From Candidatus Nanoarchaeia archaeon (GTDB taxonomy: Archaea; Nanobdellota; Nanobdellia; Woesearchaeales; UBA10216), in NCBI GenBank assembly GCA_028279045.1, contig JANQSZ010000023.1, forward strand, positions 248 through 64,247: a DNA stretch of 64,000 nt, given 5' to 3'. The translations under genes and the position numbers were made by a program. Below, piece by piece: positions 14,959-64,000 of this stretch (positions within the stretch are counted from its first letter, which is position 1; the number at the start of each line of letters is the position of its first letter). The notes beneath the pieces were generated by a model, which worked only from the letters and a program-made list of their open reading frames with translations, was not told the DNA's origin and did not search any database.

Positions 14959-15936
14959 ATGGATCTCGACAATATTGCATTGACATTTCCTGGACAGAAT
15001 TCTCATTTTCACGGTATGGGCTCTGATTTGTACATTTACGACGCTGCCCGAGTAGTTATTGACACCGCTACCGAAGTCATGGGCGACGTGCTAGGATTAA
15101 ATTTACGCGAAGTGATGTTTAGTGCAAATGATGAACGGTTAAGTCTCGGTCCTGTCGCACAAACTGCAATACACACAGGGAGCATGGCCACATACGCAGT
15201 GTTGAACGATATGTACGGCGACAAAATAAAAGCAGTTGCAGGGCACTCATTCGGTCAAGTAGCTGCAATGGTTTCTGCTGACGTGCTTTCTCCCCAAGAT
15301 GGATTAGTACTAGTTGAACGCCGGGCAACTTTCGCAGACAATTTGTTTCCTGCCACAGAAGAAGATCCTGTGTATATGATAACCATGCTCGGCACTGAGG
15401 CAAATACTGAATTTAAGGACCAGGTAGAACAAGAGTGTGAATATGTTTCTGCAGAGAAAGGGTATGTCGGGCTCGCAACAATAAATTCTCCCACAATGAT
15501 CGTTATTTCTGGAAATCCAGAGGCAGTGGAAACCGCAGCGAGTAATCTTCGTGCCCGGACAAAGAATCTTGATCGTGATCATCGGATACGATACATTCCA
15601 ACCGATATCAAAGGCCCATTCCACACACCCCTAATGGATGATGTGGAAACAGATTTAGCAGTCGTAATGCAAGACATGCAGTTTCACGAGCCGTCAAAAG
15701 TGGTAATTGTGAACGGCATTCCAATGACAACAGGATTAGATAGAGCATATTTGGAAAATACAACAACGGTTGTTGATTTCCGTGCATCACTTGAACATTT
15801 GTTTGCTAGTCCCAATTACCAACACATCATTCAATCAGCTCCCGGCGATGCACAAGGAAAGATTGCTCGTCGTGGTTATGACATGCGTGGCACAGAATTC
15901 CACCTTGCGGACGAACTTCTTAACTTAGCCCGTTAA
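14959..15936 (+). CDS. acyltransferase, malonyl-CoA:ACP transacylase (FabD)-like
   Basis: 325 aa. N-terminal FPGQNSHFHGMG matches the FabD FPGQGSQ motif, and GHSFGQ is the active-site Ser motif GHSxG. Confidence 0.65.
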   Translation: MDLDNIALTFPGQNSHFHGMGSDLYIYDAARVVIDTATEVMGDVLGLNLREVMFSANDERLSLGPVAQTAIHTGSMATYAVLNDMYGDKIKAVAGHSFGQVAAMVSADVLSPQDGLVLVERRATFADNLFPATEEDPVYMITMLGTEANTEFKDQVEQECEYVSAEKGYVGLATINSPTMIVISGNPEAVETAASNLRARTKNLDRDHRIRYIPTDIKGPFHTPLMDDVETDLAVVMQDMQFHEPSKVVIVNGIPMTTGLDRAYLENTTTVVDFRASLEHLFASPNYQHIIQSAPGDAQGKIARRGYDMRGTEFHLADELLNLAR

Positions 15937-18604
15937 TTTGTATGTACCAAGGTTCAGCATCTGTTGCAGAGCTAATTGTTTTTCGCATTGCCCCTCCAGG
16001 TCCGCTGCTTCCTTGTAGCCCAATTCTCCAGTAGTTCACTTGTCCTGATTTTTGATTATCTGATCCTCCAAAAGGATCTGTCTCAACTGTAAATACTACA
16101 TTCGCAGTATCACCACGTGTTGTTCGCCAGTGATTCAGCACATCAGTAATGTCAACACAATCATACCCATTGGAAGTCCAAGCGCTTGCAGTTGATTCGA
16201 CAGAGCCGCGGCCATACGCTTCAAGTGTAGCCATGTTGTCATTGGCAACGTCAATAAGAGAATCAATAGCAGTTACCGTTACCACATCTGACGGCGTTCC
16301 TTCAACGCTTTCTCGTGACGCACAGAATACTGCATCCGTAACTACAGCATTGACCGGTATTCCTGAGTATCCTATGCATTCAAAATATGTTCTGTAAGGG
16401 AAATACGTGTATCGTTGATCTGCCATGGCACAAGTAAGTTGTACTGGCGTTGTTCCTGAAATCGTAAAATCAACATAATCAGCGCGGCACCATGAGGAAG
16501 CAGTTCCACACGTTGCTCCAACGACAACAGGATCGTTCTCATCAATATTCACCGTTACCATCTCTGTTCTCCATCCCGTTACACCATTTGGTGTGGTTGT
16601 CCACGTATGTTCCTCAGTTCCATCAACAAGTAACCGGTAGACGTCTCCTGTTCCGTCATCATCTTCATCACAGTAGCGAACCGCAACATCATACGTTCCA
16701 CTGCCTTCAGGGAAATTAGCTAGAGTAGCAGTGGTTTCAGACGAGTGTGTTCCTTCGTGTCGTGCACATTCCCCGCCAGATGGGCTGCCACAAACACAGT
16801 TTGTTGTTGCCGTAAAGCCACCGGCATGCGTCAAATCTTCCATTTCAACAAAGTACGGTGCAGGTGCTGCTCCTGCTGAAACATCAAAGGAAATTAAGTA
16901 GTCAACAGTGTTCGCATTTGAGTCTGTATCTTCGCACCGGACATAGATAGTATACGCTTGTCCATCCGATAGTGGACCGTATGTATCCGAATGTGACGTT
17001 CCACCTGTAGTGCTAAATGTGTTCGCCATTACAGAAAAGTCTTCGCCGCCATCTGTATCCCATTTACATGTTGCTGCTTCATCAGTGTTAACAGAAATTG
17101 GTGTGCTTGTAGTTCCGCTAGCAAGCGTTCCCGACGGTGATCCGCCTGAGATAACTGGAGGTACGCCAGGTGCAACATCAAACGTTATGATAAAGTCTGC
17201 TGTGTTAGCGTTACCACTTGAGTCTTCGCAGCGTGCATAATAGGTGTATGCTTGTCCATCAACAAGGCCATTGAGTGATTCATTGTGTGTTATGCCGTCC
17301 GAAACAGTGAATGTGTTAGCCATCGAAGCATAATCTATTCCCGAGCTCGTGTCAAATTTACACGTAGCTGCTTCGTTGGTTGTAATGGTCAAATTTGTAT
17401 TAGTAGTTCCCGTCGGTAATGTTCCTGTTGGCAATCCATTGCTCAGAACAGGAGGAGTGACATCCGGCCCTATTTCAATTGTGAATGAGAGAACTGCATC
17501 AGTTGGGTTCTGGTTCAAGTTAATAGATTGGTCTTGACATCGCACATAATATATTTCCGTATCCCCGTCAGACAATCCAGATATGGAATCAGTATGTGTA
17601 ATCGAATTCGTTGTAACAAACAAGTTCGGCATGGAATCATATGCAGTTCCCGGTACAACATCATATCGGCAATCTGCAAGTTCATCTGTGCTCACAACTA
17701 AGTCCACGTTTGTAGTTCCCGACGGTAAAAATCCGCTTGGATCCAATTGAACGATCTGTGGTGGTGTTGTATCAGGTGGCCGAACCGTAAATTGAATGAC
17801 AAAATCGAGTGGGTTTTGATTTTGATTCGGAGATTGGTCTTCACATTTAGTGTAGTAGCGGTACGTTGTGTCCTCAACAAGGCCGCTGATTGTTTCACGA
17901 TGCTGTACACCGCCTGTTGTACTAAAATCACTGTCCATATCATCGTAATTTTCTCCAGGGTAAGGATGGAACTTACAATCTGCAGGTTCGTTTGTATCGA
18001 ATCCCATGATTACTTGAACAGTATCGCTTGGCAGTGAAGTATCAACAGGCAACGGATTGATCTGTACAGGAGGTGTCCAGTCTTCTGGGTCTGGTGCATC
18101 TTGTTCTTCTTGTTCAACATTTGCAATCAGTGTTCCTGACGCTGTGTGGGAATTAGCTGCGGAAGAGTCTTCGTGGTGCCACGACACTTCTATGTTGAAT
18201 TTAGCTTGTTCGAATGAAATGTCATTGATGTGCTCACAATCAGCTTCTGCAGATGCCCAATGATCGAGCGTGAACGCTTGCCTGTCACCTGTTCGCATTA
18301 ACACACCGCCAGGATCAATGAACACGCAACGTAATTCAAGCTCATCGCTGATTGCGGTTACATTCGTAACTCGTATCAAATCAGACCGATCATTCTCCAG
18401 TAAAATATACACTTCGTCTGCATTCGAGTCGATTCGTGCGTCCAGACATTCAATGTTCTGCGCAATAATGCATGATTCAGGTAAAACTTTGTCAACATCA
18501 ACTAATCCATAATAGTACACTACAGAGACTGTAGCCATGACTATCAAAATCGCCCAGCCGTAGGTGAGCATAAACTCCATCGCTGCTTGTGCTTTCATGG
18601 ACAT
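15920..18604 (-). CDS. giant pilin-fused surface protein (class III signal peptide + pilin domain + four ~70-aa Cys-containing repeats + C-terminal domain shared with the next gene)
   Basis: 894 aa. N-terminus MSMKAQAAMEFMLTYGWAILIV matches the EppA-type prepilin motif QxAMEF. Residues 30-150 align with the major pilin at 55327-55860 (LPE.C...C.D....ADEVYILLEN). Four internal repeats TxxC(K/R)(F/W/Y)D...MAN.F....G..H......L.DG..Y.YY.RC.D are present. Confidence 0.7.
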   Translation of the reverse strand: MSMKAQAAMEFMLTYGWAILIVMATVSVVYYYGLVDVDKVLPESCIIAQNIECLDARIDSNADEVYILLENDRSDLIRVTNVTAISDELELRCVFIDPGGVLMRTGDRQAFTLDHWASAEADCEHINDISFEQAKFNIEVSWHHEDSSAANSHTASGTLIANVEQEEQDAPDPEDWTPPVQINPLPVDTSLPSDTVQVIMGFDTNEPADCKFHPYPGENYDDMDSDFSTTGGVQHRETISGLVEDTTYRYYTKCEDQSPNQNQNPLDFVIQFTVRPPDTTPPQIVQLDPSGFLPSGTTNVDLVVSTDELADCRYDVVPGTAYDSMPNLFVTTNSITHTDSISGLSDGDTEIYYVRCQDQSINLNQNPTDAVLSFTIEIGPDVTPPVLSNGLPTGTLPTGTTNTNLTITTNEAATCKFDTSSGIDYASMANTFTVSDGITHNESLNGLVDGQAYTYYARCEDSSGNANTADFIITFDVAPGVPPVISGGSPSGTLASGTTSTPISVNTDEAATCKWDTDGGEDFSVMANTFSTTGGTSHSDTYGPLSDGQAYTIYVRCEDTDSNANTVDYLISFDVSAGAAPAPYFVEMEDLTHAGGFTATTNCVCGSPSGGECARHEGTHSSETTATLANFPEGSGTYDVAVRYCDEDDDGTGDVYRLLVDGTEEHTWTTTPNGVTGWRTEMVTVNIDENDPVVVGATCGTASSWCRADYVDFTISGTTPVQLTCAMADQRYTYFPYRTYFECIGYSGIPVNAVVTDAVFCASRESVEGTPSDVVTVTAIDSLIDVANDNMATLEAYGRGSVESTASAWTSNGYDCVDITDVLNHWRTTRGDTANVVFTVETDPFGGSDNQKSGQVNYWRIGLQGSSGPGGAMRKTISSATDAEPWYIQINGLS
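16880..17101. repeat. near-identical intragenic repeat shared by the two giant pilin-fused genes (copy 1)
   Basis: Encodes PISVNTDEAATCKWDTDGGEDFSVMANTFSTTGGTSHSDTYGPLSDGQAYTIYVRCEDTDSNANTVDYLISFDV. The counterpart at 20146-20370 is over 80% identical, and the antisense frames also match (…SPPSVSHLHVAAS…). Confidence 0.6.
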
Positions 18605-21600
18605 GTTGTTTTTGTTATGTATCCTGATGATCTTGTTGCGCCGACGATCGATCCATCAATGCCGTTTCCTGAGTAGTCTACTACTGTGCTGCCTGTTCCG
18701 TCAAGATGATATCCGGCTACAAGATCTGTTGTGTCACATCCAAAATCATTGACACCTGCTGCATGATTTGCTGCAAGTTCTGGTTGTGATAGTGCGCGAT
18801 CGTAAACTCTTACTTCGTCTATAAAGCCAGTGAAGTCGCTATCCAGTCCACCGCCCCATCCAGATCCTGTGTCTGCCCTTCCTATGGCAGCCCATTGAGC
18901 AGCGCCTGTTCCAGGTGTTGTTCCCGGTGCATTGCTGTTCACTTCATTCCCATTAATGTACACGCGCAGTGTCGTGCCATCCCAGGTTCCAGCAACGTGC
19001 TGCCAAATTCCTTGTGTGATCGTTCCGCCTTTGACTGTTCTTGCGCTTGATCGCCAGAAACCTAATTCAAGTTGATTTCCTTCAACATACATTGCGCGGT
19101 CTCCGGTGTTGATTCTTTCTTCGATAATGTTTCCATCGGCTGCGCTCGGGTTGATCCATGCTTCGTATGTAAACGATGCTGGTGTGGCGAGTGAACTAAT
19201 GTCAAGATAATCGCCTGATCCATCAAACTGAAATGCTTTACTTGTTGACGTGCTAATTACGTTCAACGTAACCTGTTGCGGTACACCTGCATTTCCTCCC
19301 GCACCATCTAGGTCGAAAGGTGTTGCTACAATATTGTATGTTCCAACTGCAGGTGTCCATACATGGTAGTTTCCGCTTGCATCGCCAGCGTACGCGTACG
19401 GTGCACTATCTTCGATTCTTGTGAGAACGTGCTGAGTCTCGAATACAACGCTTTCTACACTGCCGGAGGTAACTGCTTGTATATTCAAATTTGGATACAT
19501 TGCTAAGTCCACCGTTTCTGTTGCACTCATCGGATCATAACCAGAAATTGGCAAGTCTGTATCCGCATTAATCAAATACAATTCTGTTACAGCTGTTGTT
19601 TGTGCTTCCGACGCGTCGTTGATTTGAATGTACCAAGGATTATCTACAGTGGTTGAATTAATTGTTTTTCGAACTCGAGGGGATGAAGACGATTGTTCCC
19701 CGATTCTCCACCTGTGCGTACTGCCAGCAACTGCGTTGCTTGATCCTCCGAAAGGAGTTGCTTCGATGGAAAAGTACACGTTGGAGCTATCTCCCTTGGT
19801 AACTCTCCAATGATTCAACACATTCGTAATGTCAACACATTCGTAACCAGGCGTTGACCATCCACTCGTCGATATAACAGGACCTTTTGCTGTTCCTTCT
19901 AGCGTAGCCATGTTATCACTATCAACATTAATCACTTCATCGATAGCTGTAATTGTAATGGTGTCTGTTGGCGATCCTTCTGTTACATTCAATGCTGCAC
20001 AGAATACTGCGTCGTTAACCGTGTTTGATGCTGCTAAGCCAACGTAGCCGCGACATTCAAAATAAGTTCTGTATGGATAGTATGTGTATCGCTGATCTGC
20101 TTCTGTGTTGCAATACAGTCTGTGTGTTGTAAAAGTCGATACATCTACATCAAAACTAATCAACGCATCAGCAGGGTTTGCGTTACCAGAGCCATCTTCA
20201 CATCGTACATAGATAGTGTATGCTTGTCCGTTTTGCAATGGCGGATTGTACGTATCCGAGTGTGACGTTCCTCCAGTCGTACTAAACGTATTCGCCATTG
20301 CAGCGAATGCTTCTCCACCATCGGTATCCCATTTACATGTCGCAGCTTCGTTTGTCGTAACCGATATAGGTGTGCTTGTTGTTCCTGCAGCGAGTGTACC
20401 TGTAGGTAAGAGATCGCCGAGCACTGGTGGTGTGCTATCTGAGAGTTCAATTTCAACAGTGATTGTAAAGTCATCAGGATTAGAATTACCAGCCCCATCT
20501 TCACATCGTACATGATGGTCAATCATATCCCCGTCGTTAAATCCAGAGACAAGTGTGCTATGTGCTGTTCCGCCTGTGGTGTCAAAGTTGTTGGCCATCA
20601 AGACAAAACTAATTCCTGGGACAGGGTCCCATTTGCAAATAGCATTTTCATCAGTAGTCAATGCAATGTTCACATCTGTTGTACCGGGTGGTTGTGGTAC
20701 TGATGGGAGTCCATCGCTTCGTACTGGAGGATCAGTATCTGGAGGCAGTGCAACATCGAACGTAATGAGCTCCCCAGTTGGATTCATATTGTTGCTTGCA
20801 TCTCTGCAACGAACGTAGTAATTGTAAGTAACACCGTCAGAAACAGCAACGTCGAACTCAAACACATTACCTCCCATGTGAATAAATGTGTTTAACATCG
20901 ATGGGTATGGAATATCTGAGTCTTGGTTGAATCGACATGTCGCTAATTCATCCGTACTCACAGAAAGTGTTGCCGTCGTTGTGCCTGCTCCAAGTGTTCC
21001 CATCGGACCAATGACAGTGATAACTGGCGGATCCGGGTCAGGCGGAGGTGCAACGCCAACTGGTCGCACGTTGGCGAGCATTGTTCCTGTCGCAACATGC
21101 ACAAAGTCATCAGGCACCGAAGCACCCAGTGATGTTTCTGATCTCCAGTCTACTTTCAAATCAAACAGAACACGTTGTTCTCCGTAGTTTGCAAGCGATC
21201 CGCAATTGTCAAGGTGAAACAATTCTGTTTCTCCGTTTTCAACAAGCGTAGAGGTTGGTGTAAGAATATTACAAACCAATTCTCCATCTCTGGTTGTCGC
21301 GGTAATCTGATCGATGAGTACATTATGTCCTTTCAAATTGGTAATATCTAGAAAAACATCATTGCTTGCTTCATCAACAACAAAGTCCTTGCAATAGAGG
21401 TTTCCTCCAAGATCACATTCTTCTGGGAGTGCCTCTGAAGCGTCAATATCAGCGAAATATGCAATTCCCGCTATCACACCAACCGCGATCAAGATAGCCC
21501 ACCCATAGGTGATCAAGAATTCCATAGCATACTGTGCTCTAGCGATACTCTTCAACCTCTTTTTGCGCTTGCGCTTACTCCTTTTCTGGTATGTTTCATT

Positions 21601-21621
21601 TAAAAAGCTTTGCCGTCGCAA
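18595..21621 (-). CDS. giant pilin-fused surface protein paralog with C-terminal LamG/concanavalin-like domain
   Basis: 1008 aa. The ORF begins with TTG at 21619-21621. The QxAMEF prepilin motif (ARAQYAMEFLITYGWAILIAVGVIAG) sits about 30 aa in, so the true start is uncertain. It has a pilin-like domain, three Cys-containing ~70-aa repeats, a middle region homologous to the C-terminus of the 894-aa protein, and a C-terminal LamG-like segment (FDGSGDYLDIS...AWINPS...IDEVRVYDRALS). Overlaps the upstream paralog by 10 nt. Confidence 0.7.
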   Translation of the reverse strand: MRRQSFLNETYQKRSKRKRKKRLKSIARAQYAMEFLITYGWAILIAVGVIAGIAYFADIDASEALPEECDLGGNLYCKDFVVDEASNDVFLDITNLKGHNVLIDQITATTRDGELVCNILTPTSTLVENGETELFHLDNCGSLANYGEQRVLFDLKVDWRSETSLGASVPDDFVHVATGTMLANVRPVGVAPPPDPDPPVITVIGPMGTLGAGTTTATLSVSTDELATCRFNQDSDIPYPSMLNTFIHMGGNVFEFDVAVSDGVTYNYYVRCRDASNNMNPTGELITFDVALPPDTDPPVRSDGLPSVPQPPGTTDVNIALTTDENAICKWDPVPGISFVLMANNFDTTGGTAHSTLVSGFNDGDMIDHHVRCEDGAGNSNPDDFTITVEIELSDSTPPVLGDLLPTGTLAAGTTSTPISVTTNEAATCKWDTDGGEAFAAMANTFSTTGGTSHSDTYNPPLQNGQAYTIYVRCEDGSGNANPADALISFDVDVSTFTTHRLYCNTEADQRYTYYPYRTYFECRGYVGLAASNTVNDAVFCAALNVTEGSPTDTITITAIDEVINVDSDNMATLEGTAKGPVISTSGWSTPGYECVDITNVLNHWRVTKGDSSNVYFSIEATPFGGSSNAVAGSTHRWRIGEQSSSSPRVRKTINSTTVDNPWYIQINDASEAQTTAVTELYLINADTDLPISGYDPMSATETVDLAMYPNLNIQAVTSGSVESVVFETQHVLTRIEDSAPYAYAGDASGNYHVWTPAVGTYNIVATPFDLDGAGGNAGVPQQVTLNVISTSTSKAFQFDGSGDYLDISSLATPASFTYEAWINPSAADGNIIEERINTGDRAMYVEGNQLELGFWRSSARTVKGGTITQGIWQHVAGTWDGTTLRVYINGNEVNSNAPGTTPGTGAAQWAAIGRADTGSGWGGGLDSDFTGFIDEVRVYDRALSQPELAANHAAGVNDFGCDTTDLVAGYHLDGTGSTVVDYSGNGIDGSIVGATRSSGYITKTTCP
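20146..20370. repeat. near-identical intragenic repeat shared by the two giant pilin-fused genes (copy 2)
   Basis: Encodes PISVTTNEAATCKWDTDGGEAFAAMANTFSTTGGTSHSDTYNPPLQNGQAYTIYVRCEDGSGNANPADALISFDV, matching 16880-17101. Confidence 0.6.
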
Positions 21622-21655
21622 CGCTTAAAAACACGTTACTTACTCTAAACAGCAT

Positions 21656-21738
21656 GCCGGGAGTGGACGATCCGGTACGTCCAGTCGCCTCGAAAGCGAC
21701 CTCCGCAAGGTATCTGGGTTCAAATCCCAGTCCCGGCG
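21656..21738 (+). tRNA. tRNA-Ser (anticodon CGA)
   Basis: Acceptor and T-arm are identical to tRNA-Ser(GGA) at 7516 (GCCGGGA...CUGGG-UUCAAAU-CCCAG-UCCCGGC-G). Anticodon stem GUCGC/GCGAC with loop CUCGAAA, long variable arm. Confidence 0.8.
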
Positions 21739-21794
21739 TCAGGGGACTGGGGCTACGAAACACAGTTGAGTCTGTCCCAGTCCCGGCGTTACAC
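21739..21794 (+). repeat. conserved tRNA-Ser 3'-trailer module (copy 2)
   Basis: TCAGGGGACTGGGGCTACGAAACACAGTTGAGTCTGTCCCAGTCCCGGCGTT. GGGACTGGG (21743-21751) pairs perfectly with CCCAGTCCC (21776-21784), and the 14-nt tRNA 3' end is duplicated. An ATG follows 5 nt later. Confidence 0.6.
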
Positions 21795-22040
21795 ATGACA
21801 CAAAAAATCGAAACAGGTGTTGTCCATAAGCTACCTGCAGATTTGAAGAAAGCAGTAGCGGTCAAAGGCACGCTAGAACTCTGGAACGATATCACGCCCC
21901 TAGCTAGAAATGAATTCATCTGCTGGGTTGAAGATGCAAAGAAACCAGAGACCCGAGCTAAAAGAATCAAAAGAACCTGCGAAGAACTACACGAAGGAAT
22001 GCGCCGCCCTTGCTGTTGGCCTGGGTGCAAGCATCGTTAG
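21795..22040 (+). CDS. YdeI/OmpD-associated family protein (DUF1801-like)
   Basis: Start taken at the ATG after the trailer module (MTQKIETGVVHKLPADLKKAV...LARNEFICWVEDAKKPETRAKRIKRT). The upstream ORF-track start would run through the tRNA. Confidence 0.55.
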   Translation: MTQKIETGVVHKLPADLKKAVAVKGTLELWNDITPLARNEFICWVEDAKKPETRAKRIKRTCEELHEGMRRPCCWPGCKHR

Positions 22041-22709: not shown

Positions 22710-22828
22710 TGCCGCTGCGGGGATCTGAACCCCGGACCTCGTGATGTCCCAGTTAGCTAGTCATCGGCAAAAGCCTCAGCACTCATTATTATGAGTCACG
22801 CGCTCTAACCAGGCTGAGCTACAGCGGC
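22710..22828 (-). tRNA. tRNA-Met (elongator) or tRNA-Ile2, anticodon CAU, with a ~44-nt intron at the canonical 37/38 position
   Basis: Reverse complement has acceptor GCCGCUG/CAGCGGC, D-stem GCUC/GAGC, anticodon stem CGUGA...UCACG and loop CUCAUAA. The loop is interrupted by TAATGAGTGCTGAGGCTTTTGCCGATGACTAGCTAACTGGGACA. T-arm CGGGG-UUCAGAU-CCCCG. Not an initiator (G1-C72, AU-containing anticodon stem). Confidence 0.7.
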
Positions 22829-31806: not shown

Positions 31807-32207
31807 TTCTTTCCCCGGTACCAACCAATGACAACCGGAGTTGCAATGATAGCACCTACTGCAATCCAGAAAAACGGATCGATATAGTATGCAAGAATAT
31901 CTACTGGTGCGCCTGCAATAAGTATCGTCGGCAAAATCAGTGCTGAATCAAGTAGCAAACCAACGCCAAAGAACACTAATCCCAAATACAGTCCATTCTG
32001 CAGGGTTGGTTTTTCTTTGTTGAAGAACCACCACGATATTGCACCGATAATGACGATACCAACCAGAATGTTAACTATCCACAGCGTTGCACCGACTTCC
32101 TCCCCGCCAAACACGTCAATTCCAAGTAAGCCTGCAACAGCAACGCCTGCTACAAAAGATACAATGTATGTTGCAATTCCAACAAGTATGGCAAGTTTCC
32201 AGTTCAA
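31803..32207 (-). CDS. integral membrane protein (4 TM helices)
   Basis: 134 aa. The 4-nt overlap with the upstream giant gene suggests an operon. Confidence 0.5.
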   Translation of the reverse strand: MNWKLAILVGIATYIVSFVAGVAVAGLLGIDVFGGEEVGATLWIVNILVGIVIIGAISWWFFNKEKPTLQNGLYLGLVFFGVGLLLDSALILPTILIAGAPVDILAYYIDPFFWIAVGAIIATPVVIGWYRGKN

Positions 32208-42846: not shown

Positions 42847-43425
42847 ATGTTCGATCTGGACAAAAAATCACAACTAGCAAAGAAGGATCGCTCTAAAAAA
42901 GGCAGCGTTGACGCTCAGATCAAGCCTCTTATTACTGCGATAAACAAACATCCTGATTACTATACCACAAGCAGTTGCGCAGGCAGAATCGTTCTTTTCT
43001 CCCCCGATAGAAAGGATCGCTTCAACATGTTGCTTGTTTCTCATTCCCGAATATCCTTAAAGCGGCTCAACGAAGCGCTAGAAAACATTCCGAAAAGCGA
43101 TGTTTATCTCCGTCAGGAGTCGTTCATCTTGCACGTTGCATGCCGCAATATGGATGCAGCAGAGAAGCTTCTCAAGCTTGCTCAATCACATGGATTAAAA
43201 CGTGCAGGAATTATTAGTACTAAGAGAATTATCGTCGAGTTAGTCAGTACAGAACACTTCGATTCGATTATAGCTGAAAATGGACATGTGCTCATTGATC
43301 AAATATATCTAAAAGTTCTTTTATCGAGAGCACATGAGAAAATGAAAAAAAATAAAATAAAAACAAGTTACTTCTGTAGAAGTTTTATTGCCAAGATGAT
43401 TGCCAAGACAATCACGACTAGGTAA
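42847..43425 (+). CDS. taw3: tRNA wybutosine-synthesizing protein 3 homolog (Taw3/TYW3-like methyltransferase)
   Basis: 192 aa. The SSCAGRI motif and surrounding pattern (YYTTSSCAGRIVLF...FILHVAC) match TYW3. Confidence 0.65.
   Translation: MFDLDKKSQLAKKDRSKKGSVDAQIKPLITAINKHPDYYTTSSCAGRIVLFSPDRKDRFNMLLVSHSRISLKRLNEALENIPKSDVYLRQESFILHVACRNMDAAEKLLKLAQSHGLKRAGIISTKRIIVELVSTEHFDSIIAENGHVLIDQIYLKVLLSRAHEKMKKNKIKTSYFCRSFIAKMIAKTITTR
43340..43367 (-). terminator. oligo-T run (on the minus strand) immediately after the stop of the 43368-45074 gene
   Basis: The plus-strand A-rich tract AAATGAAAAAAAATAAAATAAAAACAAG is T-rich on the minus strand, directly 3' of the stop at 43368-43370. Confidence 0.4.
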
Positions 43426-52276: not shown

Positions 52277-53365
52277 CTAAGGAGTCCCAACTTGCTCGTT
52301 CAGTCCAGCATCAGTCAAGTTGTAGTCAGACAGGTGTTGAGCATCAATCTTCAGTCCGTACGCAAACGTGTCTGGCGTTCCCGGCATTCCTCCACCGCCA
52401 GCATCTGTAATACCCACTAAGTAGAACAAGTCGAATGGATCACTCTGGCAGGTATTTGGATGGAAGAAACAATAGTCAACATAACTTTGCATCTCTTCAG
52501 AATTACCATGCTCAAACGGAACCGGATTTACTAAACTCGTAATTCCACAACAAACCGATCCAGTTGTATCATCATAGAATCGCTCAAGATAACTTGGCCC
52601 TTCTTCATCGTAACGATATGCTTGCGTATCAACAAACTCTGCAGTTGCAGACGTATTCCACGTTTCAATATTTGATTCATTAATCTTATTTGTCAAGTCT
52701 TCGCCAAATAAAGTATTCTCTCCGATCATGTACATCGGATCGTCTAATTCTTCAATGTTGAAATGCAACGTCAAGTTAAACGACGTGTTCCAGTACGCAA
52801 CATCTGACGCAACCATAACATGGAACGTCGCATTCACACCAACAGCAAACGGTCCGGTGTCGTTATCTTGAAATAGAATAATATTGAAATCATTATAGTC
52901 GTTAAAGAATGTCGTGTTGATGAACAGGATGTCGGTTGATGCATTTTCAATCTGACGCAACCGGTAAGTCAAGTTATTATCCCTCATGATTGGCGTATCT
53001 TTCAATCCAGCTCCGGTACGTCCAATCAACGCATCAGATTCAACCCCACCAATAGTACCATTCAGCAACACTTCTTCAAAAATATCGTTTAGTTCTTGTC
53101 GATTATTCAAGTAGTTTCCCGTCGAGTTAACATACAACGCAGTTGTTTTCAACGCTGCAATACTGCTATGAATTAATGACCGTTCCAAGTACGCAAACTT
53201 CAAATTTTTCAAGTAATCGTCTGCAGTTTGCACTCTACTTTTAGTAATCGGCACTTTATCTTTTAACGTAACAAATGTCTGCGAACTAAATGCGACAATG
53301 ATGAATCCAACAAGCATGATTGCGATAAACGTAAAGAAAATACCGCGTTTGTTCATTGTTGCCAC
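52277..53365 (-). CDS. pilin-like protein with class III-type N-terminus (minor pilin/pilus-associated), gene 5 of 5
   Basis: 362 aa. N-terminus MATMNKRGIFFTFIAIMLVGFIIVAF (basic, then hydrophobic) and an Asn/Thr-rich extracellular body. Overlaps the upstream gene by 13 nt. Confidence 0.5.
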   Translation of the reverse strand: MATMNKRGIFFTFIAIMLVGFIIVAFSSQTFVTLKDKVPITKSRVQTADDYLKNLKFAYLERSLIHSSIAALKTTALYVNSTGNYLNNRQELNDIFEEVLLNGTIGGVESDALIGRTGAGLKDTPIMRDNNLTYRLRQIENASTDILFINTTFFNDYNDFNIILFQDNDTGPFAVGVNATFHVMVASDVAYWNTSFNLTLHFNIEELDDPMYMIGENTLFGEDLTNKINESNIETWNTSATAEFVDTQAYRYDEEGPSYLERFYDDTTGSVCCGITSLVNPVPFEHGNSEEMQSYVDYCFFHPNTCQSDPFDLFYLVGITDAGGGGMPGTPDTFAYGLKIDAQHLSDYNLTDAGLNEQVGTP

Positions 53366-53847
53366 ACGCGCACCTCCCCGACGAATGGACCCCAGAACAT
53401 TGATTTGTTCGGCGTACCAGAAAGAATAACTTTTGATGAGATCAATAAACCAGAACTGTTTCGCTCAACACCGGTTTCGTACATGATGGCATCATCAACC
53501 CGAACAGAATACCCGTACTGCGGCGGTATTCTTCCAATAGTGATACTTTCAGTAAACGTCTCTGCCAGCGTAAATTCCTCCCGGATGTAAAACTCACCAA
53601 TTTGTTCAAACAATGAATTTTCCAAATTGCGTATGTCACCATCCCGTCGCATTTGTTGAATCTCTGGCGTATTCGTATTCCGTACTGTCTGCGTTGCCAT
53701 TCCCTTAGCAAGGTCATCTGCAAAGAACACCGCTTGTTCCTGTTCCGGTCTATAGGATGTGAGAAATAACAGAAGTAGCAGACCTGCCGCTATGATCACC
53801 GTCGCTATAAACGCGTCCAGTGTCAAAAAATATCCTTTCTTTTTCAT
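53353..53847 (-). CDS. pilin-like protein with class III signal peptide, gene 4 of 5
   Basis: N-terminus MKKKGYFLTLDAFIATVIIAAGLLLLLF. Overlaps neighbours at both ends. Confidence 0.55.
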   Translation of the reverse strand: MKKKGYFLTLDAFIATVIIAAGLLLLLFLTSYRPEQEQAVFFADDLAKGMATQTVRNTNTPEIQQMRRDGDIRNLENSLFEQIGEFYIREEFTLAETFTESITIGRIPPQYGYSVRVDDAIMYETGVERNSSGLLISSKVILSGTPNKSMFWGPFVGEVRVWQQ

Positions 53848-54251
53848 GAACAGGCAAAGTTTCCGATTCGTGCTTTTCCGCTACCAATAGCAGCACGATC
53901 AGGTGAAATATTAATCAGATTACCATCTTCGTCTTGCAGATGGATACAAAAGTCTCCTTTAATTCCGAGTTGTTTCCGTATTTCGTCATACGGCAGATCT
54001 GCAAATTCTTGCAGTCGATCTTTATCGATTTGTTTTCCTTCAATAAATCCAAACGGATCGTCTCCTTCTAACACTTCTGGAATCGTCTCTCCTTCTGCTT
54101 TCAGTTCTTCAACGCGGTTGTTTTGTACTGCAAACGTCAAGAACCACAGTGCTACAATAATTAAAACGACGAAGATGATGATTGCAACGATTGCATCCAG
54201 CGACCACCCTTGTCCGAGCTTGTTCATGGACATTCGCCCCGATTCAAACAA
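53844..54251 (-). CDS. pilin-like protein with class III signal peptide, gene 3 of 5
   Basis: N-terminus MSMNKLGQGWSLDAIVAIIIFVVLIIVALW. Confidence 0.55.
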   Translation of the reverse strand: MFESGRMSMNKLGQGWSLDAIVAIIIFVVLIIVALWFLTFAVQNNRVEELKAEGETIPEVLEGDDPFGFIEGKQIDKDRLQEFADLPYDEIRKQLGIKGDFCIHLQDEDGNLINISPDRAAIGSGKARIGNFACS

Positions 54252-54655
54252 ATGAAGTGTCCACGTTTCTCAATATGATTCATTCCTTTATTCAACACAC
54301 CAGATACGTTCCTTCGCACTGCTTGCACGTACGTCAGTTTGGGCTCTTCAAAATATTCTATTTTAATCTCACTAAAATTACCCGTCCCAATATCACTCGC
54401 GTTAATGAGCGTAAGATTGTAATCCCGACCTCGCAGGGATTTAACCAACGAGAAGTCTCGTGTATACCCATCTTCTGCGCGCATCGCAAGTTCAATTTCT
54501 GAAAATGCGATGAAAGAAACATCTTGCAACAATTCAGCACTTCGACGTTCATGCGTAGCGGCAAGTCTATTGCTCAATGTAAGAAAGAACAGTACTAAAA
54601 TGATAAACATCATCGAGATGATGATGGCGCTTTCGATTGTCGCTTGCCCTTTCAT
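54224..54655 (-). CDS. pilin-like protein with class III signal peptide, gene 2 of 5
   Basis: N-terminus MKGQATIESAIIISMMFIILVLFF (KG-Q-x-T-x-E). Confidence 0.6.
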   Translation of the reverse strand: MKGQATIESAIIISMMFIILVLFFLTLSNRLAATHERRSAELLQDVSFIAFSEIELAMRAEDGYTRDFSLVKSLRGRDYNLTLINASDIGTGNFSEIKIEYFEEPKLTYVQAVRRNVSGVLNKGMNHIEKRGHFICLNRGECP

Positions 54656-55293
54656 CGTCCTTCAAGTGATTGTATAATCTCGACATCTTTTTGTGTAATT
54701 TGACAATCACCGTTGTAGTCGCATTCATTGCAGTTGTCGTAGTCTCCTTGACAACCAGGACCACCACAGTGATTCGTATCTGTGCTATCAATATCAGCTC
54801 CGTTTCCCGACGGATCTAAATTTGTAGAGATAACACATTCATCGTTCATTGATATGATTACAAATGGAAACCGGTTCGGCGTCACCATTGCTTGGATGCG
54901 CGCATTTTTCACACCAGGAGTAACATCTGCTGCATCAAAAGACCCAACCATGTTGATTTGCGATGGAAACGCGTGATCGTTAACAACTTCTCCAACCCGA
55001 TGCGCAATGACAAATTCATTAATGCGCGGGTCTGTAGTCCAGTCAGTAAGTATTTCCATACTCTCAACATTGTCTGGAAGTGATTGTGTTAACGTTATTC
55101 TGGACGGCGAACCTTGATAGTACACTAATTCGCCGGTATTAACAACTTCTCTACCGAAGGAGAAGATCTGATCGCTCGATATTCTCTCATTCTGATTATC
55201 AGCAAAACGATAGAACGTATAAATTGTTGGTACGAGCACAAGAAGTATGATAGACGCTACCATTAAGTATTCAAGTGAGGATTGAGCTTTCAT
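54652..55293 (-). CDS. archaeal pilin, EppA-substrate type (QxSxEYL motif), gene 1 of 5
   Basis: N-terminus MKAQSSLEYLMVASIILLVLVP is a textbook DUF361-type class III signal peptide. Confidence 0.65.
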   Translation of the reverse strand: MKAQSSLEYLMVASIILLVLVPTIYTFYRFADNQNERISSDQIFSFGREVVNTGELVYYQGSPSRITLTQSLPDNVESMEILTDWTTDPRINEFVIAHRVGEVVNDHAFPSQINMVGSFDAADVTPGVKNARIQAMVTPNRFPFVIISMNDECVISTNLDPSGNGADIDSTDTNHCGGPGCQGDYDNCNECDYNGDCQITQKDVEIIQSLEGR

Positions 55294-55326: not shown

Positions 55327-55860
55327 TTACTGTTCGATGTCTCCGAGGATCTGACCATTCATTGTGTGTGTGAATGAGTCAGTCGAGTCAGATGCATACC
55401 AGCCAATGGTAATGTCGAACTTCTGCTTACCAGTTCCAACCAAAGTAGCGGTTAGACCACAAGTGTCTAGTGTAAGGTCTGCGGTACCTCCGTTAGGAAT
55501 GTACTTACCCCATTTAGCACCGAAGTCTTGGGTTGCATTAGCTTCTCCGTTACCGAAGTCGTTGTTACATGTTACTCCAACTTCTGCATCTTGGCTTGTT
55601 ACTGTAACAGTATCAAGGATGATTCCTTCACCCATACCGTTTTGTAATAACAAGTATATCTCGTCTGCACTTGCATCAAGTTTGTAGTCATTACAAGCTA
55701 CTCCTTGTTGTAGTTCACAACGATCTGGTAAAAGCGTCTCCGGACTTAGTACACCAAAGTAAGCCAAAGCTCCAATGACAACTAAAACCACGAGAATAGC
55801 CCAACCATAGGTCATTAAGAACTCCATAGCTGCCTGACCACGTTTTAGTCCTTTTAGCAT
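55327..55860 (-). CDS. archaeal type IV major pilin candidate (class III signal peptide, QAAMEF motif)
   Basis: 177 aa. N-terminus MLKGLKRGQAAMEFLMTYGWAILVVLVVIGALAYFGV. The mature domain is homologous to the N-terminal domains of the giant proteins at 15920-21621. Confidence 0.75.
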   Translation of the reverse strand: MLKGLKRGQAAMEFLMTYGWAILVVLVVIGALAYFGVLSPETLLPDRCELQQGVACNDYKLDASADEIYLLLQNGMGEGIILDTVTVTSQDAEVGVTCNNDFGNGEANATQDFGAKWGKYIPNGGTADLTLDTCGLTATLVGTGKQKFDITIGWYASDSTDSFTHTMNGQILGDIEQ

Positions 55861-61292: not shown

Positions 61293-61631
61293 ATGAAACA
61301 AGTCATCCTAGCACGGCAAGATCTGAAGCTTCCAAAGGGCAAATTAGCTGTCCAGGTAGCGCATGCAGCGGTTATCGCTGTAGAAAAGTGCTCCCAGGCT
61401 GATTACAATGCCTGGAGTAATGAAGGCAGCAAGAAAGTTGTTCTCAAAGTAGCTGACGAAAAAGAACTTCTGGAATACAAGCGAAAAGCAGGGCAAAAGA
61501 AACTCCCTCTTGCACTGATCACAGATGCCGGCAAAACAGTCATAGCTCCTGGCACGAAAACAGTACTTGCCATCGGCCCTGCAGAAGATGACGTTATTGA
61601 TTCTTTAACTGGCCATCTCAAGATGGTTTAG
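61293..61631 (+). CDS. pth2: peptidyl-tRNA hydrolase, archaeal/eukaryotic Pth2 type
   Basis: 112 aa with LKLPKGKLAVQVAHAAV, PGTKTVLAIGP and TGHLKMV matching PTH2. Confidence 0.8.
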   Translation: MKQVILARQDLKLPKGKLAVQVAHAAVIAVEKCSQADYNAWSNEGSKKVVLKVADEKELLEYKRKAGQKKLPLALITDAGKTVIAPGTKTVLAIGPAEDDVIDSLTGHLKMV

Positions 61632-62665
61632 AACAGGAAGAATCCTGAAAAGAAGATTCCTGCCACAGATACCATTCCTAGATAAACAACCTGTGAAGAA
61701 ATCAAAAAGATAGGGAAGTATTTCATTCCTCCTCGTACAGATCCTGTGCTGATGATAGACACAATAGCAGCCGAGAAAAACGACATCGTTGCTAATGATA
61801 AATGTGAAAATTGTTGAAATACCCCAATATCAATTTCAAAATCTGAAAAATTTATAGGGAGCAAGTCTGCTGCCGATGCACCAGTTCCGATTTTATCCGC
61901 AAATCCTTGTACAATTTGCACAAAGAAGTACGAAAGCGTAAACAGTAGTGGCGCTACAACCACGACAATTGCAAACAAAAAGATAACGTACGTCAGATTT
62001 GTGGCTCGCATGTCTTCTTTGAGCTCTCTCGTCTCTTCCAGGTTCTCAACAACACGATCAATCAGATCAGCGACTTTCCCGCCACTTCGAATTCCTTCGA
62101 TAATCAAGTCAAATGATCGCCGCATAAGAGGTGAATTGTACTTCATAGTAAACTCTCGCAGCGCTTCATCCACATCCTGGCCAGTCATAACTCTTTTCGC
62201 CGCAAGCCGAACTTCATTCGCCAGCACGCCAAACTCGGGTTTAATCGCGCTCCACAATGCTTTCTCGAAAGGCATTCCACCTTTCAAGTTTTCCGATACA
62301 TAACGAAGAAAATCAGGCAGCACAACTTCCATTTGCTTTGTTCTCTGGAAAATAATCAGTTCAAAGTAGAAGTACAATGTTCCTGTAAAGAGTGATATGG
62401 CTCCGAGCGTTACAAATGTGAAGCTCAGCAACGTTACAACAAAAACTGTAAGTGGGCCTGCCTCCCCTGACGAGATATAGCGAGGATAAACCCATAAAAG
62501 GAAAAACAAGACTGCTGTAAACAAACCACCATAGAAAATCGATCCAAACAAAGAGTACGGAACTTCTGTCATTCCGGTCTTTAGAAAGTACCCACGGAGA
62601 TGCCGTCTGATCAGCTTCGGTACAAACGCTTTTCCGAATTCCTCAGGATACAGTATTTGCCACAT
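61628..62665 (-). CDS. type II secretion system F-domain membrane protein (TadC/FlaJ-like) of the pilus assembly machinery
   Basis: 345 aa. TM helices flank a cytoplasmic T2SSF-like domain (…RLAAKRVMTGQDVDEALREF…IIEGIRSGGKVADLIDRV…). Confidence 0.65.
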   Translation of the reverse strand: MWQILYPEEFGKAFVPKLIRRHLRGYFLKTGMTEVPYSLFGSIFYGGLFTAVLFFLLWVYPRYISSGEAGPLTVFVVTLLSFTFVTLGAISLFTGTLYFYFELIIFQRTKQMEVVLPDFLRYVSENLKGGMPFEKALWSAIKPEFGVLANEVRLAAKRVMTGQDVDEALREFTMKYNSPLMRRSFDLIIEGIRSGGKVADLIDRVVENLEETRELKEDMRATNLTYVIFLFAIVVVVAPLLFTLSYFFVQIVQGFADKIGTGASAADLLPINFSDFEIDIGVFQQFSHLSLATMSFFSAAIVSIISTGSVRGGMKYFPIFLISSQVVYLGMVSVAGIFFSGFFLF

Positions 62666-63525
62666 CAGAGATCCACCGTCGGTCGAATTGATTTAATGAT
62701 AAACACAAAGCTCATTTGAAATACGCCGAGTGCAAACAACACAATATACACCATAGGTGTTGTGATCGTGATACCGACAATACTTGCTAGAATAAACATC
62801 ATCGCTAGTCCTAAGGAAGGCATAACAACTGCGAGGACCATGTAGAACAACAAGACGCTGCTCAGTTTCTTTCCATACGCCTTGATTTCAATTTGCTGTT
62901 CCACAGTAATTGCATGCAACGTATTCCGGAGCGCTTTAGAAACTTCAGTTCCTGTCTTCAGCGCCAACAAAATTTGCCAAATGATTTTCTTGAATCGTTC
63001 TGAACTAGAGTATGTTCTCGCGTTGGAAAGTGCAATTTCCATCGGCGTCCCGGTATTAATCTCGTCAACAATCTCTTTGAAGTATTTACCTGCAACTCCA
63101 TAGCTGTGGGATGCATCGATAAGCGTGTTAAACATCGGTGTTCCTGATTCTAGTTTCACAAGAATGTATCGTCCTGCAAACAGCACATCTTTGTCGATTT
63201 CACGCTGTCTTTTCTTGATGTATCCCGACGGGGTGTTCATCAAAAAGAAGAACGATCCCAAAAAAGAAAAAACACCAACGAGGACAAGCATCACGAGTAC
63301 ATCAAGCGGATGGCGGTCTCGCGAAAACAGAAAGAATGCAATGGCAACCAGTCCGATAGAAAGGAATCCTGCGAGCTGCAGCGATCTCTTCACGAATTGT
63401 TCTGGCGTGTACCGAAGGTGGGCAATACGAATTTTCTTTCGTAACCCAGGGAACTTCAGTGCAATGATGTGTACAATGTCCATTTTACAGCTTGAGTCGT
63501 CCTGTGTAGTACTTTGACATGACAA
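62665..63525 (-). CDS. type II secretion system F-domain membrane protein (TadB/FlaJ-like), separate gene
   Basis: 286 aa with a T2SSF-like domain (…YFKEIVDEINTGTPMEIALSNA…LKTGTEVSKALRNT…). Its start overlaps the stop of the previous gene by 1 nt, so the two single-domain genes resemble a split FlaJ or a TadB/TadC pair. Confidence 0.65.
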   Translation of the reverse strand: MSCQSTTQDDSSCKMDIVHIIALKFPGLRKKIRIAHLRYTPEQFVKRSLQLAGFLSIGLVAIAFFLFSRDRHPLDVLVMLVLVGVFSFLGSFFFLMNTPSGYIKKRQREIDKDVLFAGRYILVKLESGTPMFNTLIDASHSYGVAGKYFKEIVDEINTGTPMEIALSNARTYSSSERFKKIIWQILLALKTGTEVSKALRNTLHAITVEQQIEIKAYGKKLSSVLLFYMVLAVVMPSLGLAMMFILASIVGITITTPMVYIVLFALGVFQMSFVFIIKSIRPTVDL

Positions 63526-64000
63526 GTCCGATCTCGTTCACGTCGTTCATATTTCTGTTCACGAGCCATTTCAGGATGTTTTTCTTCTCTGCCAGGTTTT
63601 TTTCAATGGCAGCTACATCCATTCCCGTGTAGAGTTGTAAAATTTCATACAGTCGCGTTGGTTTAGCAACTTCAACAAACTGGTCCTTCACAGGATTATG
63701 CTGAATAAACACGTGCGGCGAGCTATCTGGCATGATCTCTGCGATTTGCAGTGATCGGCGCTTACCTGTTCGTCGGTTTCTGCTCTGTACTAATATCAAT
63801 CCAATCGACGTCAGCAACGGTTTAGGAATGTCAATTGGTGGATTCGTCAAACGCACAACAGTTTCTTCGGCATTGTTTGCGTGCAGCGTAGCATATACCG
63901 AGTGACCAGTGTGCATCGCTTCAAACAGTACTTCTGCCTCTCGTTTACGACGGACCTCTCCCATAATAATTCGGTCAGGACGCATACGTAATGCGTTAAC
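63485..64000 (-). CDS. type IV pilus/archaellum-family secretion ATPase (FlaI/CpaF/VirB11-like), C-terminal part only; gene continues beyond the window
   Basis: Frame is open to the window edge. RPDRIIMGEVRRKREAEVLFEAMHTGHSVYATLHA is the conserved His-box/C-terminal region of this ATPase family. Confidence 0.8.
   Translation of the reverse strand, partial: VNALRMRPDRIIMGEVRRKREAEVLFEAMHTGHSVYATLHANNAEETVVRLTNPPIDIPKPLLTSIGLILVQSRNRRTGKRRSLQIAEIMPDSSPHVFIQHNPVKDQFVEVAKPTRLYEILQLYTGMDVAAIEKNLAEKKNILKWLVNRNMNDVNEIGLVMSKYYTGRLKL

Follow-up and report, generated by a model that had tools for sequence, protein, structure and literature searches.

Two tandem genes of a DPANN archaeon encode unusually large modular type IV pilins, probable pilus-displayed adhesins

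Analysis of a 64-kb stretch of DNA from a Candidatus Nanoarchaeia archaeon (64,000 nucleotides, hereafter the window) revealed two tandem genes, p1 and p2, that each combine a full type IV pilin module with a large extracellular body. This fusion, proposed in an original prediction made from the sequence, is real in both genes as judged by homology and predicted fold. The two proteins follow the modular-pilin principle known from bacteria but are archaeal and unusually large, and we consider it fairly probable that they are minor modular type IV pilins which serve this DPANN archaeon as pilus-displayed, glycan-binding adhesins.

The list of open reading frames contained both long frames on the minus strand, where the original prediction had placed them (Table 1). 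The length of 1008 aa given for p2 was accurate in that the frame is open up to a TTG at position 21621, but a start at TTG 21555, which yields 986 aa, is likelier. Translation thus probably begins with a 7-aa leader (MKSIARA) rather than with the 29-aa leader that the upstream codon would produce; the TTTTTAAA element lies between these two TTG codons. The NCBI annotation starts p2 at MEF (976 aa), by which the signal peptide is lost. In the case of p1, the NCBI start at ATG 18598 gives a 4 nt overlap (ATGA) with the stop codon of p2, and ATG 18604 gives an overlap of 10 nt, so that the two genes overlap, as had been claimed, whichever start is used. The latter codon, chosen in the original prediction, may be the right one, since its 5-aa leader (MSMKA) suits the family better. 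The pair is surrounded by housekeeping genes, approximately 34 kb away from the pilin operon. Protein homology searches found no close orthologue of either protein elsewhere, and no further paralogues of their body domains were found within the 64-kb window.

Type IV pilus machinery is encoded in the same window: a pilin operon of six genes and, near it, two T2SSF genes and the C-terminal end of a T2SSE ATPase gene (Table 1). The operon opens with a stand-alone pilin of 177 aa. The five ORFs that follow, which had no family match in Pfam or NCBIfam, are presumed from their N-termini to be minor pilins or accessory subunits. A prepilin peptidase (A24-type) was not seen among the window proteins that were scanned.

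Table 1. Position and description of the two modular pilin genes, their domains and the pilus-related genes of the window.
Feature	Coordinates	Strand	Description
p1 (gene 1), modular pilin	15920..18604	-	894 aa (ATG 18604) or 892 aa (ATG 18598)
p1 class III signal and N-terminal helix	18491..18604	-	MSMKA/QAAMEF, then hydrophobic helix
p1 globular pilin module	18104..18490	-	eight-strand beta-sandwich (predicted fold)
p1 FN3-like repeats	16868..18076	-	four, ~100 aa each
p1 Cys-rich beta domain	16463..16867	-	~135 aa
p1 orphan shared domain	15923..16462	-	C-terminal copy
p2 (gene 2), modular pilin	18595..21555	-	986 aa counted from TTG 21555
p2 class III signal and N-terminal helix	21442..21555	-	MKSIARA/QYAMEF (R -2, A -1, Q +1, E +5), then hydrophobic helix
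p2 globular pilin module	21046..21441	-	four conserved Cys, H-x-A-x-G motif near its end
p2 FN3-like repeats	20137..21036	-	three, ~100 aa, two Cys each, after Pro/Asp-rich linker
p2 orphan shared domain	19606..20136	-	~177 aa, Cys-rich, ends PWYIQIN
p2 domain without family match	19231..19605	-	~125 aa
p2 LamG / concanavalin A-like lectin domain	18775..19224	-	PF13385
tRNA-Ser gene	21655-21740		beyond the far TTG 21621 of p2
Five ORFs with class III-like N-termini	52277..55293	-	213, 143, 135, 164 and 362 aa; N-termini read directly
Stand-alone pilin, first gene of pilin operon	55327..55860	-	177 aa; presumed major pilin
Two T2SSF (TadB/TadC-like) platform genes	61628..63525	-
T2SSE secretion/pilus ATPase, C-terminal part	63485..64000	-	runs off the window end

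In EppA-type signals, a short leader with positive charge and with Gly or Ala as its last residue precedes Gln at +1, Glu at +5 and about 20 hydrophobic residues (PMC3875500). We found a short basic leader, Gln at +1, Glu at +5 and more than 20 hydrophobic residues in both p1 and p2, and the predicted QAAMEF and QYAMEF N-termini with their hydrophobic stretch can be read directly from the two proteins. The last leader residue is Ala in p1 and p2, and Gly in the stand-alone pilin (..LKRG/QAAMEF). Across the family alignment, mature residues 1-19 were nearly invariant (QAAMEFxxTYGWAIL), which is expected if the helices pack into one filament core. The search with DUF361 and class III models suggested by the original prediction went against it, as eight pilin-like N-termini had no match to such a Pfam model even at E ≤ 10; NCBIfam yielded no such match either. 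The N_methyl motif (PF07963 / IPR012902) had no match in p1 or p2 in the Pfam search. One homologue carries the JGI label 'UPF0333 family', which is an annotation only.

Resemblance to the presumed major pilin continues beyond this helix. The first ~165 aa of p1 and p2 matched the whole 177-aa stand-alone pilin in BLASTP with E values of 4e-28 and 9e-28, respectively, and the globular parts alone still matched it at E 1e-16 to 1e-18 (z = 23-27 versus shuffled sequences). The homology therefore spans the globular part instead of being restricted to the signal and transmembrane helix, a restriction that the original prediction had named as an outcome incompatible with its proposal. The AlphaFold2 model of p1 residues 1-170, built from a 119-sequence alignment, reached a pLDDT of 91.8 and consists of a helix (residues 2-32) and an eight-strand sandwich, an arrangement of N-terminal alpha-helix and beta-sandwich head that is also present in solved archaeal pili; the best Foldseek match of this model in the PDB was an archaeal type IV pilus. 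By sequence comparison, the pilin modules of p1 and p2 are paralogues of the presumed major pilin.

These modules belong to a very large pilin family, of which at least 6643 members were detected at E ≤ 1e-5, together with at least 576 matches in genomic sequence; almost without exception they come from Woesearchaeota/Nanoarchaeota MAGs. This distribution and the archaeal markers of the window point to a probably Woesearchaeota-type source organism. Almost all of the family proteins measure 150-220 aa, and a minority is long (359-758 aa), several of these with LamG domains. The long members include P0176 (359 aa, one LamG), P0091 (601 aa, two LamG), L015 (758 aa) and L054 (673 aa). These four Woesearchaeota pilins have the same pilin module as p1 and p2 (QAAMEF..TYGWAIL, conserved Cys) and likewise bear C-terminal grafts, but their bodies are shorter and unrelated, without the FN3-like stalk or the shared 180-aa domain described below, and none of them was found as a tandem pair. 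As to their surroundings, two T2SSF genes and the C-terminal part of an ATPase gene lie immediately upstream of L015, and L054 has as neighbours a major pilin of 160 aa and a LamG-containing class III protein of 655 aa, both loci belonging to other Nanoarchaeia/Woesearchaeota MAGs; P0091 lies among housekeeping genes, like p1 and p2. Glycosidase-like motifs were noticed by eye in the L015 pilin. With 892-986 aa, p1 and p2 are longer than each of the 170 class III ORFs (maximum ~755 aa) counted in 80 related genome loci, a sample biased towards stand-alone pilins; at this size they may be sterically difficult to accommodate in a filament.

Beyond the pilin module, both proteins continue into the repeats listed in Table 1. 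The original prediction of three or four Cys-containing repeats held, each repeat in both proteins having two conserved Cys, but their period is about 100 aa and not about 70 aa as it had proposed. Matches to FN3-type Pfam models were weak (Pur_ac_phosph_N, E 0.008; Y_Y_Y, E 0.01-0.03), as was the match of a repeat profile to the FN3 domain of chitinase A1 (PDB 1k85, E 0.029); precomputed PF00041/PF16656 labels are attached to homologues of these repeats. The repeats are most closely related to multidomain proteins that CPR and other bacteria secrete via Sec, and in which glycoside hydrolase, lyase, peptidoglycan-binding and LamG domains are found. The last repeats of p1 and p2 are 74% identical to each other. 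The block at positions 16880-17101 and 20146-20370, reported as more than 80% identical between the two genes, indeed reaches 81% at the protein level; the recent duplication or gene conversion deduced from it is, however, contradicted by the divergence at synonymous sites. DNA identity over this block is 72%, and the same codon is used at only half of the identical residues. On this codon evidence we ruled out recent gene conversion between p1 and p2, and the sequences point to an old paralogy under purifying selection.

Regarding the distal domains, the region of ~180 aa said to be shared by the two genes is present in both proteins (56-58% identical), and no relatives of it were found in two metagenome scans, Pfam or PDB sequence searches. 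Similarly, Pfam, NCBIfam and PDB sequence searches returned nothing significant for the ~125-aa domain of p2. A CBM6/CBM35-like reading of p1 residues ~578-712, made by eye, was dropped, having neither a Pfam match nor a PDB sequence match. The AlphaFold model of p1 residues 572-892, for which the alignment contained two sequences, had a pLDDT of 42.5 and was too poor for a fold search. In agreement with the original prediction, p2 carries a C-terminal LamG domain (Laminin_G_3), which scored 101.9 bits against a cut-off of 27.6 (E 4.9e-29) and covered model positions 1-150 of 151. This domain has a relative in the PDB (4qvs, E 3e-9); the remaining ~59 aa of p2 form a tail with Cys-Pro at its end. 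Membership in TafC (haloarchaeal Tat-fimbriae subunit, NF052521) was rejected at 32.9 bits versus a cut-off of 410, the match being limited to the LamG region. Since the three other distal domains have no assignment, LamG is the one feature that argues for glycan binding.

The statement that such an architecture had not been described proved too strong, because modular pilins are known in bacteria, and archaeal pilus loci have been reported to contain large proteins that combine a class III signal with adhesin-like domains (PMC4858521; bioRxiv 10.64898/2026.04.22.720090). An InterPro survey collected more than 1200 bacterial modular pilins, many of them from CPR, with PF13385 and FN3 among the common modules (PMC8179133). 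In Streptococcus sanguinis, PilB combines a pilin with a vWA module (PMC8179133, PMC9934059), and PilC, composed of a pilin, an Ig-like module and a glycan-binding ConA-like lectin, forms a tip complex with the modular pilin PilB (PMC9934059). Under the definition of Raynaud et al. (2021), p1 and p2 are modular pilins, with a pilin module joined to PF13385 in p2 and to FN3-like repeats in both. They share with the bacterial proteins a class III signal and pilin module, a short linker and domains that are not pilus-specific and, with PilB and PilC in particular, the encoding of two modular pilins together and the use of LamG/ConA-like and FN3/Ig-like modules; adhesion to glycans from the pilus tip would be a further common trait, predicted only in the case of p1 and p2. 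In contrast to the bacterial proteins, they have an archaeal module (Gln +1, EppA-type signal, beta-sandwich head) that lacks the N_methyl/IPR012902 motif and is clearly paralogous to the major pilin, and their bodies extend ~720-820 aa beyond this module with six or seven domains, PilC being 52.8 kDa in total. The published survey was based on the N-terminal IPR012902 / PF07963 N-methylation motif, so that archaeal modular pilins such as p1 and p2, which are without PF07963, were out of its reach.

Two bacterial proteins, P0065 (1223 aa) and P0092 (886 aa), share the repeats of p1 and combine N_methyl PF07963 with LamG or FN3. These modular pilins of CPR/Patescibacteria are like p1 and p2 in having a pilin N-terminus, Cys-containing FN3-like repeats, LamG and a comparable size, and CPR/Patescibacteria resemble the organism that carries p1 and p2 in being ultrasmall, probably episymbiotic and present in similar habitats. 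They differ in their PF07963 motif, in the pilin family used and in the assembly machinery. As the homology is found only in body modules, it suggests module sharing or convergence and not orthology.

Among archaeal filaments, the Epd pili of Methanococcus maripaludis have Gln +1, Glu +5 and a short leader in common with p1 and p2 (PMC3875500). Likewise, two platform genes adjoin the ATPase both in this window and in the Epd system (archaeal type IV filament 'system 1'). Unlike Epd pilins, p1 and p2 gave no match to Pfam DUF361 and have a leader that ends in Ala. The major pilins of M. maripaludis are tiny, with ~55-65 aa in the mature form, whereas the family of p1 and p2 has a beta-sandwich head of ~125 aa, and the bodies of p1 and p2 are much larger than any described for Epd.

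Placement on a pilus has to be weighed against other roles for the two proteins. Instead, p1 and p2 could be processed by the prepilin peptidase but stay outside the long pilus, as membrane-anchored surface adhesins or within a short pseudopilus or bindosome-like structure, which we judge unlikely but quite conceivable. Such a role would agree with their bulk, which is above that of every class III ORF in the 80 related loci, and with their location amid housekeeping genes and far from the pilus operon, P0091 being placed similarly. Class III signals also occur on large archaeal proteins that form no filament, as in the Sulfolobus bindosome, whose sugar-binding proteins are, like p1 and p2, large archaeal proteins exported and anchored via a pilin-type signal (PMC4858521; bioRxiv 10.64898/2026.04.22.720090). 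However, both proteins retain a complete globular pilin module that is under selection, with its conserved Cys and motifs, their N-terminal helix hardly differs from the one in the major pilin, and long relatives were found inside pilus loci. Bindosome substrates are known to have only the signal and helix of a pilin and not its globular module, and the retention of this module in p1 and p2 argues for co-assembly with pilins.

It is highly improbable, in our opinion, that the pilin-like N-terminus acts as an export signal only and that the bodies, once cleaved off or shed, function as secreted or S-layer-associated proteins which bind or process carbohydrates. The relationship of the repeats to Sec-secreted proteins with glycoside hydrolase and lyase domains, together with the motifs seen in L015, would be in line with this idea, but Pfam, NCBIfam and PDB sequence searches revealed no catalytic domain in either protein, and a conserved globular pilin domain is not needed for export alone. 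Moreover, mature p1 and p2 would still carry their hydrophobic helix, which prepilin peptidases do not remove, and would therefore not be released. We find it hardly credible that p1 and/or p2 are the main subunits of a second pilus type, a separate thick and decorated filament, even though both keep Glu +5 and the full pilin module, and archaea often have stand-alone pilin genes at a distance from those for assembly (PMC4858521). In such a filament, 700-800 aa extra per subunit would need to find room around a helical core measuring a few nanometres, and the obvious filament builders are the abundant short members of the family; also, no close orthologues of p1 and p2 were found elsewhere, unlike what a core structural subunit would show. 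To our knowledge, there is no filament whose subunits each carry 700-800 aa of extra mass.

For p1 and p2 as minor modular pilins, we infer signal cleavage, pilus assembly, filament position, ligand and biological role along the following lines. Both proteins, bearing a class III signal, would insert into the membrane through their N-terminal helix, and a prepilin peptidase would cut in front of Gln +1. The ATPase and the two platform proteins of the window would then build them into the filament of the 177-aa major pilin, which should be feasible because their pilin module is paralogous to that subunit. Since the bulk is attached at the C-terminal end of the pilin module, the pilus tip would be the most likely position; the proteins could also be spaced sparsely along the shaft, given that the module is connected through a Pro-rich linker to a stalk made up of three or four FN3-like repeats. 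Binding would be carried out by the distal modules, namely the orphan domain in both proteins, the beta domain in p1, and the ~125-aa domain and LamG in p2, with glycans on a partner cell or surface as the likely target. The overlapping genes would be co-expressed, and the two proteins could act as a pair. A bolder version, speculative and rather doubtful, is that p1 and p2 form a two-winged tip complex on the Woesearchaeota type IV pilus, in which the orphan 180-aa domain serves as a new module for host recognition; stalk and lectin modules would have been exchanged with CPR bacteria that share the habitats. If this were true, the orphan domain would set partner specificity in DPANN symbiosis.

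Pili-like appendages that link ultrasmall cells to their hosts have been imaged in groundwater (PMC7906910). From their sequences, p1 and p2 are good candidates for host attachment and, as pilins whose long stalk presents lectin-type and orphan domains, they offer concrete, clonable candidates for the attachment of DPANN archaea to their partners. The gain is incremental, in that a known principle is extended and no new one is revealed. The Woesearchaeota/Nanoarchaeota family to which the two pilin modules belong is missed by motif-based surveys, and the relatedness of the p1 and p2 repeats to CPR surface proteins hints at common, perhaps exchanged, adhesion modules.

The central idea of the original prediction, a pilin fused to a large body, proved sound and the feature is real. 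The first ~165 residues of p1 and p2 (the products of gene 1 and gene 2; P0001 and P0003 as called by NCBI) cover the whole 177-aa stand-alone protein presumed to be the major pilin (E 4e-28 and 9e-28). We then trimmed the sequences to begin at 'LPExC', which takes away signal and helix, and repeated the comparison with 300 shuffles as a control. As these globular parts still aligned end to end (E 1e-16 to 1e-18, z = 23–27), the likeness is not limited to the signal and transmembrane helix. The module conserves four Cys, an Asn-Gly turn and, towards its end, an H-T-x-x-G motif across 119 family members. With the alignment of these members, AlphaFold2 modeled p1 residues 1–170 (mean pLDDT 91.8) as a helix at residues 2–32 plus an eight-strand beta-sandwich, whose top Foldseek match in the PDB was the archaeal type IV pilus of Pyrobaculum calidifontis (8fk7, E 1e-4); the Sulfolobus Aap filament was also among the matches. 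With K/R at −2, A/G at −1, Q at +1 and E at +5, the signals show the features given for the Methanococcus maripaludis pilins that EppA processes (PMC3875500). The proposed HMM search gave no Pfam class III/DUF361 match at E ≤ 10.

ORF calling confirmed two long overlapping ORFs. Gene 1 has in-frame ATGs at 18604 and 18598, leaving MSMKA or MKA before QAAMEF and overlapping the gene 2 stop codon by 10 nt or 4 nt (ATGA), respectively. NCBI calls the 892-aa form; since leaders of its relatives are mostly 5–7 aa, the longer form is no less likely. For gene 2, the start first proposed (TTG 21621), that of a mechanical ORF, would give a very basic 29-residue leader and is unlikely. We took the in-frame TTG at 21555, which places MKSIARA before QYAMEF; between the two TTGs lies a TTTTTAAA element. 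The NCBI version begins at MEF (976 aa) and lacks the class III signal peptide. Beyond the far TTG is a tRNA-Ser gene, and two ORFs overlapping it are probably spurious.

Coordinates of the features discussed (positions in the window unless a locus is named)
Feature	Position	Strand	Length
Gene 1, longer form	15920-18604	-	894 aa
Gene 2, as taken	18595-21555	-	986 aa
Gene 2, mechanical ORF	18595-21621	-	1008 aa
tRNA-Ser gene	21655-21740		
ORF over tRNA-Ser	21591-22040	+	
ORF over tRNA-Ser	21596-22030	-	
Rfam tRNA match	22710-22828	-	119 nt
Presumed surface protein	32204-37447	-	1747 aa
Presumed surface protein	43368-45074	-	568 aa
Presumed surface protein	47457-50744	-	1095 aa
Cupredoxin-like/Kazal protein	38941-39675	-	244 aa
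M23 peptidase, pilin operon flank	51330-52202	-	
Weak SLT lytic-transglycosylase match, pilin operon flank	56182-57498	+	
Presumed major pilin	55327-55860	-	177 aa
Long pilin, locus L015	3682-5958	+	758 aa
Second class III protein, locus L054	9823-11790	+	655 aa

After the pilin module, both proteins continue through Pro/Asp-rich linkers into Cys-containing repeats, four in p1 and three in p2, as anticipated, but with a period of ~100 rather than ~70 aa and two invariant Cys in each (TDExAxC ... YYVRCED). FN3-type matches were weak throughout. The repeats are clearly homologous (E down to 1e-250) to those of Sec-secreted multidomain proteins, many with LamG, glycosidase or peptidoglycan-binding domains, and up to 57% identical to repeats of metagenome surface proteins. 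Most proteins sharing them are metagenome sequences without a name, and among the few with one are Paceibacterota/Patescibacteria (CPR), Nanoarchaeota and Thaumarchaeota. In p1, a Cys-rich beta region of ~135 aa and then a 180-aa domain follow; in p2, the 180-aa domain precedes a domain of ~125 aa and a C-terminal Laminin_G_3 (101.9 bits). The predicted shared region (57–58% identical) and the LamG domain were thus both recovered. Neither the shared domain nor the ~135-aa and ~125-aa regions had relatives in Pfam, NCBIfam, PDB sequences, the repeat-sharing proteins or two metagenome scans. The model of p1 residues 572–892 was too poor for use (pLDDT 42.5), and a CBM6-like look of residues 578–712, noted by impression, was without support.

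A block more than 80% identical between the genes had been taken as a sign of recent duplication or gene conversion. The identity holds for the protein (81%), but recent origin does not: because DNA identity is 72%, only 50% of the identical residues use the same codon and the pilin modules are 32% identical, the pair is old. Conservation of the last repeat and of the shared domain reflects constraint, not recent conversion.

To judge from its markers (class I LysRS, thermosome, SRP54 and an intron-containing tRNA), the window is archaeal. An Rfam tRNA match, not reported by ARAGORN, is probably an intron-containing archaeal tRNA. The right end holds two T2SSF platform genes, a number typical of archaeal 'system 1' according to a recent survey, and the part of a T2SSE ATPase gene that encodes its C-terminus. 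A few kb from there, six ORFs with class III-like N-termini form an operon, the 177-aa pilin first. One of the genes flanking this operon encodes an M23 peptidase whose linker is long and rich in Pro/Thr, the other a protein whose Pfam SLT match is weak and sub-threshold; peptidoglycan-cutting enzymes beside archaeal pilus genes would fit interaction with bacterial cells. The genes for p1 and p2 are ~34 kb from this locus, between the tRNA-Ser gene and an acyltransferase gene. Three other large presumed surface proteins have no domain in common with p1/p2: those of 1747 and 568 aa have a transmembrane anchor at their C-terminal end, and that of 1095 aa has a Cys-rich N-terminal region. Another protein has both a cupredoxin-like region and a Kazal-type serine protease inhibitor domain, the latter mostly known from animals.

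In species-representative genomes, the motif AMEF[LM][MLI]TY had at least 598 matches (576 confirmed), and nearly all records listed were Woesearchaeota, Nanoarchaeota or Nanoarchaeia MAGs. Many other motif-bearing MAGs were labeled 'uncultured Methanosarcinales' and one Saccharibacteria, probably through taxonomic mislabeling or bin contamination. A profile search returned at least 6643 proteins at E ≤ 1e-5, the best 120 all of 150–225 aa. Within 80 kept loci, a sample biased towards stand-alone pilins, 96/102 family members measured 120–200 aa and two were long (L015, 758 aa; L054, 673 aa); among 170 ORFs with Q at +1 and E at +5, 148 were <250 aa, 11 of 250–400, 8 of 400–600, 3 of 600–800 and none >800 aa. 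Further long members were P0176 (359 aa, one LamG) and P0091 (601 aa, two LamG), the latter encoded among housekeeping genes. The long pilin of L015 follows an ATPase C-terminus, two T2SSF genes and a CCA-enzyme gene, and that of L054 is divergent from a 160-aa pilin. From these members and their loci, domain grafting onto the Woesearchaeota-type pilin recurs, in some cases in physical linkage with pilus genes, and p1 and p2 are its largest examples found. The pilin operon of L054 also encodes a protein with a different class III N-terminus (SQSSLEFLILAGV), a LamG, a weak FN3-like (Pur_ac_phosph_N) match and a weak, below-threshold DUF7266 match, which shows LamG grafts on a second pilin-like family. 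The L015 pilin has Cys-rich CDNNIDDDCDGLIDC segments and no Pfam match; NEEEW and TEFG in its C-terminal region recall motifs of clan A glycoside hydrolases, so this pilin may carry an enzyme.

Raynaud et al defined modular pilins from S. sanguinis PilB and found >1200 such proteins with 264 architectures, several CPR examples included; PF13385 and FN3 belong to the frequent modules. The survey's query was the bacterial IPR012902 motif, and archaea are not mentioned (PMC8179133). S. sanguinis PilC, a pilin with an Ig-like module and a ConA-like lectin, binds glycans and, according to a model, forms a tip complex together with PilB and PilA (PMC9934059). Two proteins, P0065 (1223 aa) and P0092 (886 aa), join the repeats of p1 to LamG or FN3 and are bacterial counterparts of p1/p2, with similar repeats but the bacterial N_methyl pilin motif. 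Since the repeats recur in CPR proteins and bacterial-type pilins, adhesion modules seem to be shared between bacteria and archaea. In surveys of archaeal pilus loci, large signal-peptide proteins 'could be minor pilins or adhesins' (PMC4858521); we found no published description of modular pilins in DPANN or Woesearchaeota, literature coverage being incomplete.

We weighed two main readings. It is unlikely, though a real prospect, that p1 and p2 are membrane-anchored or bindosome-like surface adhesins using the pilin signal for export and anchoring only. Somewhat favored is that the pilin module would co-assemble with the major pilin, probably at the tip, and that the repeat stalk would display the lectin-type and orphan binding domains. 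p1 and p2 are an archaeal, very large variant of an already known design.
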